Positions 3,198 to 9,428 of a stretch of 64,000 nucleotides of DNA are shown piece by piece. The number at the start of each line of letters is the position of its first letter. Within the stretch, counting starts at the first letter, position 1. The translations under genes were made by a program, and so were the position numbers. The notes below the pieces were generated by a model that saw only the letters and a list, made by a program, of their open reading frames with translations, searched no databases and was not told the DNA's origin. Source of the stretch: Candidatus Micrarchaeota archaeon (GTDB lineage Archaea > Micrarchaeota > Micrarchaeia > Norongarragalinales > SBBD01); the NCBI GenBank assembly GCA_018819225.1, contig JAHJQN010000007.1, positions 64,001-128,000 on the forward strand, in the 5' to 3' direction.

Positions 3198-5246
3198 CTA
3201 AAGATATCGGGGGGTTGAAGTCAAACGCACGCGTTTTCCCTTCAAAATGGCGGTTAATTGAGCCGAGCGCAATCGTTGGGAGGCATTCGAAAGAGAATAT
3301 TCCGCGGTGAAGGAGCGTTCGACGAACGGGATGCACCATTGAAGCTGCATGCCGAGCACCGTATCGTCCATGGCACTCGGTGAGGGGACGCACGAGACAA
3401 CGGAAGGCGCAAAGTCTTCAATCATTAACGCGTGAAGCGGCTCGCGGGTTTTAAGATAAAGTGTCACGCGGGAATCTCGAACGGTTTTCGTAAAGTGAAT
3501 AGGGGGTTGGGGGAAACGATGGAGAGCGATGGCAAGCAATAGCAAGGGAATGAGTAAGAAATAGTGCCAAGAAAAGGAAAGAGCCAACAGACCCGAGACC
3601 CGCGAAGGAACGGAAGAGGGGTATGGAGAAGACGAGGGACGGGGAAGCACGCGGAACCAAAACGAATGGTTTGAATACTGGAGTTTCCAGTAACCGGGTT
3701 CGGAAAAGTTGAATGAACGAGATTCGGAGAGAAGAACGCGATACGGACGGCCAGACGGACTGGAAATATGAATCGGGGATTTGGGAGGAACGCCGTCATC
3801 CAGAAGAGTGATTGGGTATACCCCTAACGGAATAGAAGCCGGCATGAGAAAAATAACGAGGGGGACGCGGGCGTATTGGAGGGGAATGCTGGAGGGAGCC
3901 GCAGAGGGGAAAAAAGAGGGGGAGGGGAGAATGGTAGGAGTAGGAGAATTGACAACGGGAATTATCGGAGATGAGGAATAGGTGGAAGTTGAACTGGAAG
4001 AAGGGGGAATGGAGGGGGGAGGAGTTGGAGAAGGAATAGGAAGTTGTAGAAGAATGGGGAGGGAGTGATTCAGAAAGGAATTGTTTTCAGAAAAAGCGAA
4101 GACCGTGCAATTGAGAGCGAACGAAACGTTTTCGAGATTGAGGAAGAACGAGGCATTTGAATGCGAAGGACATGCAACAGAGGTATTGACACCCGAATGA
4201 TTAGTGCAGGAGAGCTGAAGGGAAAACGTATCGTCCACGAAACCAATGTTTTCAAGGGACGCGGAATAATCGAAAAATAAGCCGTCGAGTATAGGGTGCT
4301 TGGAAACATTGAGAATACGGGGATTCCCATGAAGAAAAAGAAAGGGAACCGCGGAGTCATTGAGTCTAGCGGATAAATGAGCGGAAACCCACGAGTCCGG
4401 TGGCGAAAAGTCGTAGTAATTAGAATAGTTTCCGGAACGCGTTTCAATCAATAGGTGATACGCCGCCGTTAATTGCGAGGTGGAAGCAACGGCGTCTGGA
4501 ATGGATAGGAAATAATGGGATTGGTAGTAGGCCCATGCACTCAAATAGTTTTGAAAATAGGTTGGAGAAAGCAAACCGAAGGTATCGGAAAGATTGATAA
4601 AGGAATGGTTCGGTTGAGAGGTATTGAGAGAGTAGTTGATGAGAGTGAGGGAATGAGAGGAGTCGTTGCAGGAGGAATGATTTACTGAAGCGGTACAAGA
4701 GGAATTGAGGGCATTGAGTTGAATGGAGAAATCGAACGATAGTAATTCAGAAAGATTGGAATAGTTAGTGGAAACAAAAGGACGGTAACGGTAACACCAA
4801 TCCTTCAGATAGTAATTCCCACAGTTCGGATTAAAATAATCGCATTCGTCACACCAAGAAAAATCACCGGGACCGGTAAACCCGGCTCGCTCGCATAGAT
4901 CCTGGCCGTAATAGTCCGTACAACCGTCCTCGATCACCAACGCAAGCCCGCCGGAAGCCGAATACAAGGGAAAGGAGGCATTAGAAATGAGATACGAGGC
5001 GTTCTGGGAAAGGGAGGTATTGAGAAGAAAAGGAGAGAGAAGGGACACTTCGCCGTGGGTAAGAAGAGATAGGTTAGAGGCGGGTATTTCGATTGAAGCG
5101 TTCGTTTGAATAAGGAATAGGTTGAAAGAAAGCGCGGGAACCCGCGAGAAATTCAGAAGCGAAACGTCAAGCGCAAAAGGAGAAGGGAAAAAAATGGTTA
5201 GTGACAGCACAACGCAAACAACGACACCGCGCATGGGGGAAGGCAC
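3198..5246 (-). CDS. Secreted/membrane-anchored surface glycoprotein, Ser/Pro-rich linker
   Basis: Signal peptide, many N-x-S/T sequons, Cys-rich segment, PS-rich linker, TM near C-terminus. Confidence 0.65.
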   Translation of the reverse strand: MPSPMRGVVVCVVLSLTIFFPSPFALDVSLLNFSRVPALSFNLFLIQTNASIEIPASNLSLLTHGEVSLLSPFLLNTSLSQNASYLISNASFPLYSASGGLALVIEDGCTDYYGQDLCERAGFTGPGDFSWCDECDYFNPNCGNYYLKDWCYRYRPFVSTNYSNLSELLSFDFSIQLNALNSSCTASVNHSSCNDSSHSLTLINYSLNTSQPNHSFINLSDTFGLLSPTYFQNYLSAWAYYQSHYFLSIPDAVASTSQLTAAYHLLIETRSGNYSNYYDFSPPDSWVSAHLSARLNDSAVPFLFLHGNPRILNVSKHPILDGLFFDYSASLENIGFVDDTFSLQLSCTNHSGVNTSVACPSHSNASFFLNLENVSFALNCTVFAFSENNSFLNHSLPILLQLPIPSPTPPPSIPPSSSSTSTYSSSPIIPVVNSPTPTILPSPSFFPSAAPSSIPLQYARVPLVIFLMPASIPLGVYPITLLDDGVPPKSPIHISSPSGRPYRVLLSESRSFNFSEPGYWKLQYSNHSFWFRVLPRPSSSPYPSSVPSRVSGLLALSFSWHYFLLIPLLLLAIALHRFPQPPIHFTKTVRDSRVTLYLKTREPLHALMIEDFAPSVVSCVPSPSAMDDTVLGMQLQWCIPFVERSFTAEYSLSNASQRLRSAQLTAILKGKRVRLTSTPRYL

Positions 5247-5326
5247 CTTTTACAAGATGCCTCCAACCGTTTGTTTGAATAATTCCCTTAGGAATAAGGA
5301 ATGGCAGGTTAAAAAAACAAGGGGTT

Positions 5327-5497
5327 ATGTCCGCTAATGAACCTGAATCTGATTGGGGTTTTATGTTTCTGTTGATGCAACCGAAAATTGCGTTATTGCG
5401 CGGAGTGTTCCTTTTCGCGCCAACTCTTTGGCCGCAGTGGAGAATTCCATTCACCCTACTAGTTATTGCAGGACTCGTTCAATTAGTGAGCGCTTGA
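5327..5497 (+). CDS. Small hydrophobic protein (56 aa)
   Basis: Manual ORF MSANEPESDWGFMFLL...LLVIAGLVQLVSA, preceded by GGGGT. Confidence 0.4.
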   Translation: MSANEPESDWGFMFLLMQPKIALLRGVFLFAPTLWPQWRIPFTLLVIAGLVQLVSA

Positions 5498-5547
5498 ACC
5501 ATAGGGAATAGGATAAAAGGATAACCGCCAATACTTTAGAGCGCGAT

Positions 5548-5654
5548 GGGCTCGTAGTCGAACGGTAAGACGCTGCCTTCGCAAGGCAGAGACTCCGGGT
5601 TCGATGCACAAAAAAGGCTTGAAAAAAGCCTGTGCGAAAATCCCGGCGAGTCCA
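5548..5654 (+). tRNA. tRNA-Ala(CGC) with 35-nt T-loop intron (59/60; 5606-5640)
   Basis: Acceptor GGGCTCG/CGAGTCC with G3:U70; anticodon arm CTGCC-TTCGCAA-GGCAG; perfect BHB (TTCG/CGAA, bulges ATG and AAT). Confidence 0.93.
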
Positions 5655-5694
5655 TTTTTTTATTAAGTGAGAGTACAACATAAAAACCCCCAAA

Positions 5695-6403
5695 CGCATC
5701 ACGTGATGCATTAGGGTTTGGTTTGAATGTACTATCTCCTCCAGAGGACCTAGATCTGGACGATCACGCTGCTGCCTTGCTTCGAGATAACAACTGGCTC
5801 TTGCGGCATCCTTGCCAACAACGAATCAATTTCCTTATACGACAAGCCACTTACATCAAGCCTCATAACAACCACCTACACGCATCGAAAGCGGATGAAA
5901 GGATATATGGGGTGTTGAGCACGTGATTTCCAGTAGTGCAACACATGATGCATAAATATTTTAGGTGGTTTAGCGTTTGATAATATAGATAAATAATTCG
6001 TTAAGATGACTGTGAAAAATCGGCGTTGTTGTTGTTTGTTTATTGTAAAAGTAGAATTATTATATTATTATAATGCGTCACGTGAAGCGTATGAATTTAT
6101 TATGAGTTAACATTCGTGCAATACCTGAGACAATGGGTGTTTTCTAGTGCTTCAGGTGATGCACCAATATTAAATTCAGTGCTTCACCTGTTGCGTGTAT
6201 GTTAAATCAAATGCTTCACGTGCTGCAGTTTGTTTTCATAATCCTTCAATTTACCCGATACATAGAGATGGTTGCCCGATCATTATGGTGTTAGGATAGC
6301 TAAATAGTTCAGATAGGATTATGGGTTTGTTTATGTATGTATTTGGTTTTTGTTTCTCCAAGTCACCTAAACAACTATTTACTTTAGTGCGTCACGTGTG
6401 GCA
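5695..6403. repeat. Array of ~8 16-bp palindromes TGCnTCACGTGAnGCA in an AT-rich region (candidate origin/centromere/terminus locus)
   Basis: Copies at 5695, 5937, 6074, 6117 (degenerate), 6148, 6180, 6212, 6388. Confidence 0.85.
5750..5866 (-). CDS. Small protein (38 aa) inside the repeat locus
   Basis: MRLDVSGLSYKEIDSLLARMPQEPVVISKQGSSVIVQI with GGTGGT SD-like sequence. Confidence 0.45.
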   Translation of the reverse strand: MRLDVSGLSYKEIDSLLARMPQEPVVISKQGSSVIVQI

Positions 6404-8059
6404 CTAGAAGTCCAATATATTCTTCTGATTCCCCACAATCAACTCCTCTTGCTCTTCGACTCCAATCTGCTCTTTATTCCCTATACTTTTCAACTCCTTT
6501 CTCAACTCATGCAATGTACTTCTCATCTTCTTCTCCCGTTGTTTCGAAATCCAGAAGAACGCCTCATCCTTACTTTTTCGCGTGATCAATACTATGGTGT
6601 TTCCTTCCCGAACCCTACCCGTTCTACCACGACGTTGTATCGCCCGAATTTCTGACGGCACGGCCTCAAAAAAGACCACGAGATCAACGGACGGAACATC
6701 AATTCCTTCCTCCGCCACCGACGTTGCCACCAACACATTGAACGATTTCGATTTAAACTCTTGCAACACCTGCGCCTGTTTTTTTTGGTTCATTCCCTCC
6801 TTACTTTTCCCAACAAACGCCTTTGCTTTCACGCCCGCAAATTGATTCAATTCCTCCACAATTTTCGTAACTGTATTGCGGTAGTGCGCGAACACGATAA
6901 CACTCTTTCCTTCCTGCACCGCATCCGATACCACTCCTTTCAACCTCCGGAACTTCGGGTGTTCCACTCCTTGCTTCCTCAATTCCTCGCACTTGATTCC
7001 AATTAATTTCCACCTAAAGTCCTGAAGCAATCCCTTCACTGCCTTGCTTTTCTGTTTCCTCTTCCCCATTTCCTGCATGAACCCCCACAATGCGTGAATA
7101 CCTTCTGTTTCCAACAAATCCAGCGCGTGGCTCACATTCATGGCTCTCGCTTGAACACTCAGCGCCCGATAACCTTCTGGTCGCATCGTAGACAGCTCCA
7201 ACGCCTTCCTCCGCGCATCCAACAACGCTCGCTTGTGCCGCTTTAAATCCGTGCTGTCCACGACCTCCAATTCCAACAACTCCGCTAACGCATCCTTCAA
7301 CAACTCCTCCAACACGCTCTTAATATCCATGAACGCCTTCGGCAACTCCACAAAAATCCAATCCAGTTTGACGGGCTTCGCGTATCCCTGCACATCCTTA
7401 TCGTTCTCATCCCGCACTTCAATATTCGCGATATTCAAATTCGTACAAATCTCTTGAATGACTTCTCGTTTGGAAGACGGGCTCGCGGTCAACCCCAAAA
7501 TAAACGCATGCTGTTTCGCTGCCTCTTTCGCTAGAAACGCGTACGAGTGCTCTTTCACCGCCCGATGCACTTCGTCAAACACAACGAGTCTGAACGCCTC
7601 CATTGAAACCCGTCCCGCCAACAAATCATATTCAACTGTTTGCGGTGTCGCACACACGATTTCCAAGATCGGGTTCGCCCACAACCTCTCTCTCAATGCC
7701 GGTTCCGTCTCCCCACTCAACACCATCACTTCCGTTGCCTCTTCCTTTCCCCAGTTAATCCGCGTTCCTTCAAACTCCAGCCATTCACGCAATCGCTGGC
7801 TTTGCTGAAGAGCCAGTGGCTTCGTAGGCGTCAAAAACAATATCTTTTTCTTTTTCCCTAAGCTCGAACGCTCCTCTTTCAAAAACTTGGCAATCACAAA
7901 CGCGGCCACATACGTTTTCCCTAACGCCGTCGGCATGATCACTAACGAGTTTCCATTCCTCAACACGCGCTCCGCCATCTCCACCTGGTATCCTCTCAAC
8001 TCTACTTGACCCGGCTTCAACGCCAGTTGCTTCAAAAAATCCGCGTATTTTTCCTTCAT
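6404..8059 (-). CDS. hef: Hef/Mph1/FANCM-type SF2 helicase lacking the nuclease domain
   Basis: MPTALGKT, PTKPL, DEVH, TASP, TSVAEEGIDVP, IQRRGRTGR motifs. Confidence 0.9.
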   Translation of the reverse strand: MKEKYADFLKQLALKPGQVELRGYQVEMAERVLRNGNSLVIMPTALGKTYVAAFVIAKFLKEERSSLGKKKKILFLTPTKPLALQQSQRLREWLEFEGTRINWGKEEATEVMVLSGETEPALRERLWANPILEIVCATPQTVEYDLLAGRVSMEAFRLVVFDEVHRAVKEHSYAFLAKEAAKQHAFILGLTASPSSKREVIQEICTNLNIANIEVRDENDKDVQGYAKPVKLDWIFVELPKAFMDIKSVLEELLKDALAELLELEVVDSTDLKRHKRALLDARRKALELSTMRPEGYRALSVQARAMNVSHALDLLETEGIHALWGFMQEMGKRKQKSKAVKGLLQDFRWKLIGIKCEELRKQGVEHPKFRRLKGVVSDAVQEGKSVIVFAHYRNTVTKIVEELNQFAGVKAKAFVGKSKEGMNQKKQAQVLQEFKSKSFNVLVATSVAEEGIDVPSVDLVVFFEAVPSEIRAIQRRGRTGRVREGNTIVLITRKSKDEAFFWISKQREKKMRSTLHELRKELKSIGNKEQIGVEEQEELIVGNQKNILDF

Positions 8060-9173: not shown

Positions 9174-9428
9174 TTATTCGTCCCATCCCCGTTTCCAACG
9201 CATGATTTTAATCCGGTCCACTAGATTATTTTTTGGGATGCGCCGGTATATCCGGCTACGTCTTCCCACGCCAAAAATGCCCGCGAACGGTTTCTTTTTT
9301 ATTCTCTTGGAAGCCCGTCGCTTGATATTCTTTCTCGTCTTCTTTCCTCGTTTGACGACGCGCTTCACGCGGTGCGAAACACGTCTCGCAATTTGCCTCA
9401 CGGTTTTTTGGCTTCGCGTTCTTGCCAT
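9174..9428 (-). CDS. Very basic Arg/Lys-rich small protein abutting minD
   Basis: 84 aa, dense R/K runs; stop codon 1 nt from the minD ATG. Confidence 0.65.
   Translation of the reverse strand: MARTRSQKTVRQIARRVSHRVKRVVKRGKKTRKNIKRRASKRIKKKPFAGIFGVGRRSRIYRRIPKNNLVDRIKIMRWKRGWDE

Follow-up and report, generated by a model that had tools for sequence, protein, structure and literature searches.

Should an abrupt change of strand composition between two adjacent genes of an archaeal chromosome be read as an origin of replication, as a terminus or as an accident of the sequence? The question is raised by a locus near the left end of a 64,000-nucleotide stretch of DNA (positions 64,001–128,000 of contig C6; hereafter, the window) from a Candidatus Micrarchaeota archaeon, where the change coincides with an array of palindromic 16-bp boxes. 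The genome (G000) is a metagenome bin of 1.37 Mb in 8 contigs, 90% complete, with a GC content of about 51%. To our knowledge, nothing is known experimentally about replication in DPANN archaea, and we found no paper on replication origins in Micrarchaeota. We describe a contig-scale flip of strand composition that occurs irrespective of gene orientation and coincides with a conserved, phased array of boxes, together with genome rearrangements that pivot around this array. On balance, we read the interval at 5.25–6.4 kb of the window as a fixed chromosome-replication pole in this family of Micrarchaeota, most likely the origin. Coordinates without a contig name refer to the window.

Strand-composition step at a palindromic box array

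Genes were called as the longest non-overlapping open reading frames (ORFs) of at least 100 aa, the G/C and A/T skews at third codon positions (GC3 and AT3, respectively) were expressed on the + strand, and skew breakpoints were placed by binary segmentation. In 500-nt windows, GC skews of +0.30 to +0.51 and AT skews of +0.33 to +0.45 were found at 3251–4250, and GC skews of -0.37 to -0.42 at 6501–8000, in agreement with the initial annotation, which had described the + strand as G/A-rich to the left of about 5.3 kb and C/T-rich from 6.4 kb onward. The third-position analysis of the whole contig that had been proposed there revealed a step that is real and far larger than first described. In 10-kb windows, the + strand of C6 is A/G-rich from 1 to 70 kb and T/C-rich from 70 to 173 kb, giving arms of 70 kb and 103 kb. 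The sole AT3 breakpoint of C6 lies at 69/70 kb (+0.24 to -0.12), and a GC3 breakpoint coincides with it (+0.11 to -0.15). Between the adjacent genes at the array, AT3 drops from +0.53 to -0.11, and the step falls within the array or the 450 nt preceding it (5247–6403). The concern that the inversion of skew might be only local thus proved unfounded, the flip being contig-scale and recurring in related genomes (see below).

The local extremes (0.4–0.5) arise from the contig-scale step, to which the composition of the two large flanking genes adds. As originally stated, both are located on the minus strand (3198–5246 and 6404–8059), and both are real genes with homologues in relatives. The coding strand of the left gene is pyrimidine-rich and thereby amplifies the local G/A excess of the + strand (third-position skews in this gene, GC3 +0.38 and AT3 +0.53), and the coding strand of the right gene, E/K-rich and purine-rich, amplifies the local C/T excess.

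Transcription direction does not account for the flip, as had been argued from the flanking genes alone, because gene orientation along C6 is mixed. When + and - strand genes are tested separately, AT3 differs between the left and right arms with p = 8e-12 and 1e-12, respectively, and GC3 with p = 2e-3 and 3e-6. Within a region, the genes of the two strands agree (orientation-independent component of 0.1–0.3, orientation-dependent component of about 0), and the non-ORF DNA of C6 shows the same flip. The asymmetry extends to amino-acid usage contig-wide, consistent with what had been noticed locally: the products of C6 genes on the strand leaving the array contain more S, P, C, F and L and less E, K and M, and purine content differs between this strand and the other at all three codon positions (p = 3e-9 to 1e-19). 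An orientation-independent strand asymmetry that reaches protein composition is unusual for archaea.

The step is located in a module composed of a tRNA gene, the box array and a helicase gene, with the following features in and next to it:

3198–5246, minus strand: left flanking gene, encoding a 682-aa secreted or membrane-anchored surface glycoprotein, rich in S/P/T/L/F and in NxS/T sequons
5548–5654, plus strand: tRNA-Ala(CGC) gene, its T-loop interrupted by a non-canonical intron; left border of the module, transcribed towards the array
5695–6403, no strand: array of 7–8 palindromic 16-bp boxes with the consensus TGCwTCACGTGAwGCA
5953–6073, no strand: candidate unwinding element, a 121-bp spacer with 23% GC, the most AT-rich of the array
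6404–8059, minus strand: Hef/FANCM-type helicase of superfamily 2 (SF2), without a C-terminal nuclease domain; right border of the module

The array occupies an ORF-free region of 0.7 kb with 38% GC (against about 51% for the genome), which is the third-longest ORF-free stretch in G000 and the most AT-rich among the long ones. The boxes, with a sequence also written TGCTTCACGTGATGCA, start at 5695, 5937, 6074, 6117 (degenerate), 6148, 6180, 6212 and 6388, with central spacings of 43, 31, 32 and 32 bp. A loose pattern, GCNNCANNTGNNGC, has 8 matches in the window, compared to 0.89 expected from shuffles, and seven of the eight are in the array; genome-wide, 7 of 37 matches fall within these 0.7 kb, the others being single sites or, once, a pair. 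Within the candidate unwinding element, a run of about 35 bp near 10% GC immediately precedes the box at 6074. Given that the array sits between gene 3' ends, no promoter function is needed of this region. A search of G000 for pairs of origin recognition boxes (ORBs) bracketing a DNA unwinding element (DUE), that is, ORB-DUE-ORB arrangements with arms of at least 18 nt and an AT-rich spacer of 40–320 bp, returned the array as the top match, the four remaining matches being shorter, isolated pairs. On the array-bearing contig of the relative G005, no duplex is less stable than the array in either 100- or 200-bp windows. The genes next to two single boxes (C7:74.6 kb and C1:210 kb) were considered as possible box-binding regulators and rejected, their products being small membrane proteins rather than DNA binders.

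Conservation of the module and integrity of the assembly

The comparison covered G000 and nine relatives of the same family (G001–G008 and G010), ten genomes of four genera, with GC contents ranging from about 42 to 62% among the family genomes examined. Helicase orthologues are found throughout the order, and in all ten family genomes boxes follow immediately downstream of the helicase gene. Eight of these genomes (G000, G001, G003, G005–G008 and G010) have the same tRNA-Ala beyond the boxes, and the order of tRNA, array and helicase is kept in three other genera. Genus g4 has four core boxes with centre-to-centre distances of 52, 32 and 53 bp, separated by spacers of 36, 16 and 37 bp that mostly contain 0–24% GC (28–38% in two of them). 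Spacers of fixed length, mostly with 0–24% GC, are present in seven genomes besides G000, and runs of 31–32-bp spacings in G000 and G002. A strict 14-mer of the box occurs in 6–29 copies per genome in all ten family relatives, compared to 0–3 copies of the reversed control, and is at background level in the order's other ten families. The box is a family-specific cis element that forms one large phased cluster and is also dispersed as single copies. In genus g4 (G003 and G006–G010), an asymmetric variant, GCATCACGTGTTGC, is found as dispersed single copies on many contigs.

The skew step recurs with the module. Whole array-bearing contigs were analysed for two relatives: on G005:C1, GC3 flips from +0.07 to -0.12 at the array, at 88 kb, which is the only breakpoint on the contig, and on G006:C12, GC3 flips from +0.19 to -0.28 at the array, at 42 kb, the only sign change on the contig. 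Both arms of G000:C6 are collinear with G005:C1. Blocks that have changed sides of the array between genomes are mostly inverted, the X-pattern expected from inversions that pivot on a replication pole; the exception is an end block (G000 C6:170–173 kb and C8:4–18 kb, equivalent to G005:C1 4–17 kb), which crossed uninverted.

It is highly improbable that the locus is nothing special, that is, a composition effect of two odd genes, a chimeric join or a recent inversion breakpoint in a metagenome-assembled contig. The extreme amino-acid composition of the flanking genes does exaggerate the local skew, and the genome is a metagenome bin of 8 contigs, but the shift in composition is maintained along arms of 70 kb and 103 kb, at third positions as well as in non-coding DNA. 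Furthermore, an inversion would flip the G/C and A/T skews together everywhere, contrary to what is seen at C6:33 kb, where GC3 changes sign without a change in AT3. A chimeric bin was rejected because identity to G005 orthologues is uniform over the contigs of G000 (medians of 44–55%) and C6 is collinear over its whole length with a single contig of G005. The misassembly or recent inversion breakpoint that the initial annotation had feared at the junction is therefore excluded, as is chimerism, by the conservation of the module, including the order of its elements in other genera, by collinearity, by the inverted crossings and by the uniform identity.

Two further observations concern the assemblies of the relatives. 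In G002, G003, G004, G007, G008 and G010, helicase contigs often end within 1–6 kb of the array, and across these fragmented family assemblies the locus seems hard to assemble or bin across. On G006:C12, a single frame on the strand that leaves the array stays open for about 12,370 codons (positions 99313–136431).

The right border of the module is the helicase gene, with a stop codon that abuts the last box. The protein contains the Pfam DEAD and Helicase_C domains and a helical bundle, matches positions 4–524 of the 781 positions of the NCBIfam Hef model, and has the helicase domain of Pyrococcus furiosus Hef (1WP9, E = 1e-104) as its best solved relative. In genus g4, the Hef orthologues (G005:C1:88784–90604 and G006:C12:42615–44294) match in two pieces, residues ~3–104 and ~105–551, which are ~120–230 nt apart in one long open frame, suggestive of an insertion in the gene. 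In G000, the helicase gene is followed by genes for an archaeal histone and an archaeal MinD (MinD_arch). The MinD_arch ATPase gene is 2 kb from the array in G000 and directly beside the Hef gene in G006, and does not adjoin the module in G005. An 84-aa Arg/Lys-rich ORF (9174–9428, minus strand), which matches no family above threshold, has its end just upstream of MinD.

The tRNA-Ala(CGC) gene at the left border was overlooked by ARAGORN in its default mode and is matched by the Rfam tRNA model at 5548–5603. Directly beside this gene, two genera encode a 223-aa protein (G005 L023:8546–9217, G006 L026:8438–9106 and G001 L025:11527–12189); it was rejected as a necessary partner of the module, as it belongs to no Pfam or NCBIfam family and no homologue was found in G000. 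The surface glycoprotein encoded at 3198–5246 has no Pfam family and has weak homologues in G005 and G006.

Skews across the genome and the second pole

AT3 is the cleanest signal in G000, with a sharp A-to-T switch at the array and a graded T-to-A switch on contig C2, where AT3 is -0.22 up to 95 kb, -0.04 at 95–115 kb, +0.11 at 116–207 kb and +0.21 beyond. T-rich strands thus run from the array towards the C2 pole. This pole (C2:95000–117000) contains the only tyrosine (Xer-type) recombinase gene of G000 (C2:97226–98146), GTTC-N10-GAAC palindromes at the junctions of small orphan genes, patchy GC3, and an ORF-poor gap of 461 bp with 39% GC (115840–116300). A DNA search of five family genomes for the C2-pole element yielded nothing usable. 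On the 400-kb contig G005:C6, GC3 neither changes sign nor flips near the Xer gene, and a second pole was not found in G005.

The sole orc1/cdc6 gene of G000 (C2:58010–59077) is on a different contig from the array, as is also the case in G001, G005 and G006. There is no skew change at this gene in G000, nor at the orc1 region of G005, and the orc1 locus is accordingly not a pole. Between tRNA-Ile and orc1/cdc6 (C2:57500–57970), there are TTCCAG, GTGGAAAC and TTTCCAGYG elements that resemble mini-ORB halves; this gap upstream of orc1 includes no AT-rich stretch, and strict mini-ORB patterns form no cluster anywhere in G000.

The G/C and A/T asymmetries at third positions are decoupled across G000, which is unusual for archaea. 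Over about 900 kb (C1, C2, C4, C7 and C6:0–33 kb), the T-rich strand is G-rich, the classical pattern of G+T versus C+A, and over about 370 kb (C6:33–173 kb, C8 and C5), it is C-rich, that is, purine versus pyrimidine. Inversion was rejected as the cause of the decoupling because it flips both skews together, and a relocated origin because both arms flanking the array are of the same purine/pyrimidine type.

Several other loci were inspected. An origin adjacent to a GINS gene was rejected: no sizeable gap adjoins the GINS gene at C3:66 kb, and a weak GC3 change nearby failed segmentation. The least stable 200 bp of the genome are at C3:83290–83490, between two convergent genes; this segment is extremely AT-rich and contains short inverted TTCGTA/TACGAA elements, without a skew change. 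At C8:50000–65700, a run of small ORFs (100–230 aa) shows GC3 of +0.2 to +0.6 on the + strand with an abrupt start at about 50 kb; no rRNA was found in this region. In a genome of another family (G016, a near-complete contig of 1.30 Mb with two orc1 genes), no replichore signal was detected at 35 sampled points, third-position skew following gene orientation only, and the polarity therefore could not be calibrated against its two orc1 genes.

Origin, terminus or organising site

The initial annotation had offered either a terminus or an origin with inverted skew, leaning towards the latter; the results favour an origin without settling the matter. The inversion itself holds for G/C and fails for A/T, given that T-rich strands leave the site as they do at bacterial origins. 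If replication causes the asymmetry and the T-rich strand is the leading strand, the array pole would be the origin, and the pole at C2 95–116 kb, the terminus. The origin assignment is favoured because the array coincides with a sharp step, whereas AT3 at the other pole changes weakly and gradually, over more than 100 kb; a sharp skew peak marks the origin of Thermococcales, and a broad one their terminus (PMC2958812). The C2 pole is also terminus-like in harbouring the only Xer recombinase, cassettes of orphan genes indicative of plasticity in gene content, and patchy GC3.

Long genes should avoid head-on replication most strongly, and their preference for the T-rich strand, which leaves the array, was therefore counted in favour of an origin. 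Among genes of at least 500 aa, 103 are on the T-rich strand versus 70 on the other (p = 0.015); the respective counts are 39 versus 17 at 800 aa or more (p = 0.005) and 16 versus 6 at 1200 aa or more, and the preference has the same direction in both kinds of skew region. The layout of the array is likewise origin-like, namely, that of an initiator array with phased boxes bracketing AT-rich spacers of fixed length. For the G/C polarity, there is a precedent in the mapped Ori3 of Haloferax volcanii, which lies at a maximum of cumulative GC skew for third positions and for non-coding DNA (PMC12999951).

At such an origin, a dimeric DNA-binding initiator, perhaps the single Orc1/Cdc6 with changed specificity or perhaps another protein, would bind the 16-bp palindromic boxes cooperatively. 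With centre-to-centre distances of 31–32 and 52–53 bp, or about 3 and 5 turns, the boxes would face the same side of the helix. Binding would open the very AT-rich spacers between boxes, and two forks would depart in opposite directions. The strand made continuously away from the array would turn T-rich and, within some hundreds of kilobases, also C-rich, producing a mirror-image shift on the two arms at third codon positions, in non-coding DNA and in amino-acid usage.

A number of observations weigh against an origin. The change from G-rich to C-rich has the polarity of a bacterial terminus and is the only skew signal common to all three genomes (G000, G005 and G006). The conserved neighbours, tRNA-Ala and Hef, face the array and would be head-on to departing forks and co-directional with arriving ones. 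The earlier claim that genes are directed away from the site holds only in part: within about 15 kb, the tRNA-Ala, Hef, MinD and surface-protein genes read towards the array, and on C6 as a whole orientation is neutral (76 genes leaving, 91 approaching), as it is around the array in G006, being mildly divergent in G005. The tRNA genes of G000 show no strand preference (16 versus 16), and giant genes in relatives show none for the C-rich strand. The long-gene test used several length cut-offs, and its result varies between contigs. The boxes are neither ORBs nor mini-ORBs, and ORB-like TTTCCAGYG half-sites are instead located upstream of orc1, on another contig. In a ranking of duplex stability, the array is not the least stable DNA of G000. 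Finally, about two thirds of G000 has the opposite G/C relation to the T-rich strand, which a single-process replication model does not explain.

Several of these observations would be accommodated if the array were a replication terminus, at which a box-bound protein halts or pauses converging forks as a non-polar barrier, with the Hef-type helicase handling the stalled forks and the origin located elsewhere (orc1, the C2 pole or a gap in the assembly). The third-position polarity in the three genomes is that of a classical terminus, tRNA-Ala and Hef are transcribed in the direction of incoming forks, helicases of the Hef/FANCM type act on stalled forks, canonical ORB-like half-sites are at orc1 rather than at the array, and a fixed barrier would give a sharp skew step just as an origin would. 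We nevertheless consider a terminus somewhat unlikely. T-rich strands leave the array and are preferred by long genes; the opposite AT-skew pole is the graded one and the one with the only Xer recombinase; and there is no skew change at orc1. The fork traps Tus-Ter and RTP-Ter use asymmetric, oppositely oriented sites, unlike the palindromic boxes, and fixed-length spacers mostly below 25% GC, down to 0%, have no obvious use in a barrier. In addition, we know of no sequence-specific terminus in archaea. The matS-like organising sites that the initial annotation had envisaged did not emerge, the boxes being clustered in 0.7 kb and not spread over a domain. With a lower probability still, the array could be a lineage-specific replicator read by a putative dimeric box-binding protein other than Orc1/Cdc6; such a replicator would be iteron-like, possibly derived from a plasmid or a virus and captured by the chromosome, where it would have replaced the ancestral orc1-linked origin and imposed the unusual pyrimidine-rich leading strand nearby.

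The boxes could also be mainly a centromere or chromosome-organising site, like parS or SegB sites, used together with the nearby MinD/ParA-type ATPase, with the pole sharing the 1.1-kb gap with them for some other reason. Since such a role could coexist with an origin, it is not a true alternative to it; as an account of the main role of the boxes, it appears quite improbable. Individual boxes do agree with the parS consensus of bacteria, TGTTTCACGTGAAACA, in about 12 of 16 positions, MinD_arch is encoded 2 kb away in G000 and beside Hef in G006, and box copies are dispersed over the chromosomes of the family, well above the reversed control and the background in other families. Against this stand the MinD gene of G005, which is not beside the module, and the SegB motif, TCTAGA S TCTAGA, which is unrelated to the boxes and occurs at scattered sites, mostly inside genes (PMC12284271). 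The ParB N-terminal domain (PF02195) was not found in the whole 90%-complete genome, and a centromere alone leaves the exact position of the skew step in the gap unexplained.

Among known systems, the array is closest in function to clustered mini-ORB archaeal origins and closest in box sequence to bacterial parS. Like oriC of Pyrococcus and Methanothermobacter, where Orc1/Cdc6 binds 13-bp mini-ORBs, it combines clustered short boxes of dyad symmetry, an AT-rich locus, a sharp skew inflection and scattered single copies elsewhere, and cooperative binding to multiple boxes would be expected; the Pyrococcus mini-ORBs, too, form one cluster and scattered single copies (PMC1904270). Outer TTC...GAA and central CA(C)GTG are shared by the array box and the mini-ORB, but the sequences differ (TGCwTCACGTGAwGCA versus TTCCAGTGGAA). 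The array lacks long ORBs and a neighbouring orc1/cdc6 gene, is approached by the flanking genes from both sides, and has a G/C skew polarity opposite to that in Pyrococcus. Of the features of Orc1/Cdc6-type origins (ORB-DUE-ORB), it thus possesses the AT-rich bracketed stretch and the strand-composition inflection, and lacks ORB or mini-ORB elements and the proximity of orc1, which is usual but not universal. With H. volcanii Ori3, the array shares the inverted polarity, from G-rich to C-rich, at positions without coding constraint, whereas haloarchaeal origins carry ORBs beside orc genes; most archaeal skew follows gene orientation, unlike the skew at the array (PMC12999951).

As in iteron plasmid origins, helically phased repeated sites lie directly beside very AT-rich DNA of fixed length; iterons, however, are direct repeats of 17–22 bp with a rep gene alongside, whereas these are palindromes on a chromosome with no conserved adjoining gene for a candidate initiator. 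The similarity to parS (PMC7022226) consists of a 16-bp palindrome centred on CACGTG; compared with TGTTNCACGTGAAACA, the best boxes consistently differ at positions 3 and 14 (C/G for T/A). As in ParABS systems, the sites are clustered at a would-be origin region with a gene for a deviant Walker ATPase nearby in G000 and G006, though not beside the module in G005, but the boxes are 32–53 bp apart, unlike parS sites, which are spread over kilobases, and no ParB-family protein was found in the genome, so that the array is not a member of ParABS. With bacterial termination systems, it has in common a specific site for a (here, putative) DNA-binding protein at a G-rich to C-rich switch; measured against the polarity of fork-trap termini, its G/C skew is terminus-type by the bacterial rule and its A/T skew is origin-type. 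Unlike the oriented Ter sites, the boxes have no direction. The matS site of MatP is also a short palindrome, but matS sites extend over hundreds of kilobases, compared to 7 boxes in 0.7 kb and a few scattered singles on other contigs. The dif site of Xer is a single 28-bp site (11-6-11), and the only Xer gene of G000 is at the other pole.

Taken together, these observations point to a real, conserved replication pole with an undescribed cis architecture, which is probably an origin. The locus is a precise, conserved and testable candidate: about 0.7 kb long, it is built of a defined 16-bp box at fixed spacing, and it belongs to a family of archaea whose strong strand asymmetry does not depend on gene orientation and extends to the composition of the proteins. 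Should it prove to be an origin, it would be one that lacks recognisable ORBs, in an archaeon, and is separate from orc1; should it prove to be a terminus, it would be the first in archaea to be defined by its sequence. In both cases, the array provides an anchor for estimating growth rates from metagenome read depth in these organisms.

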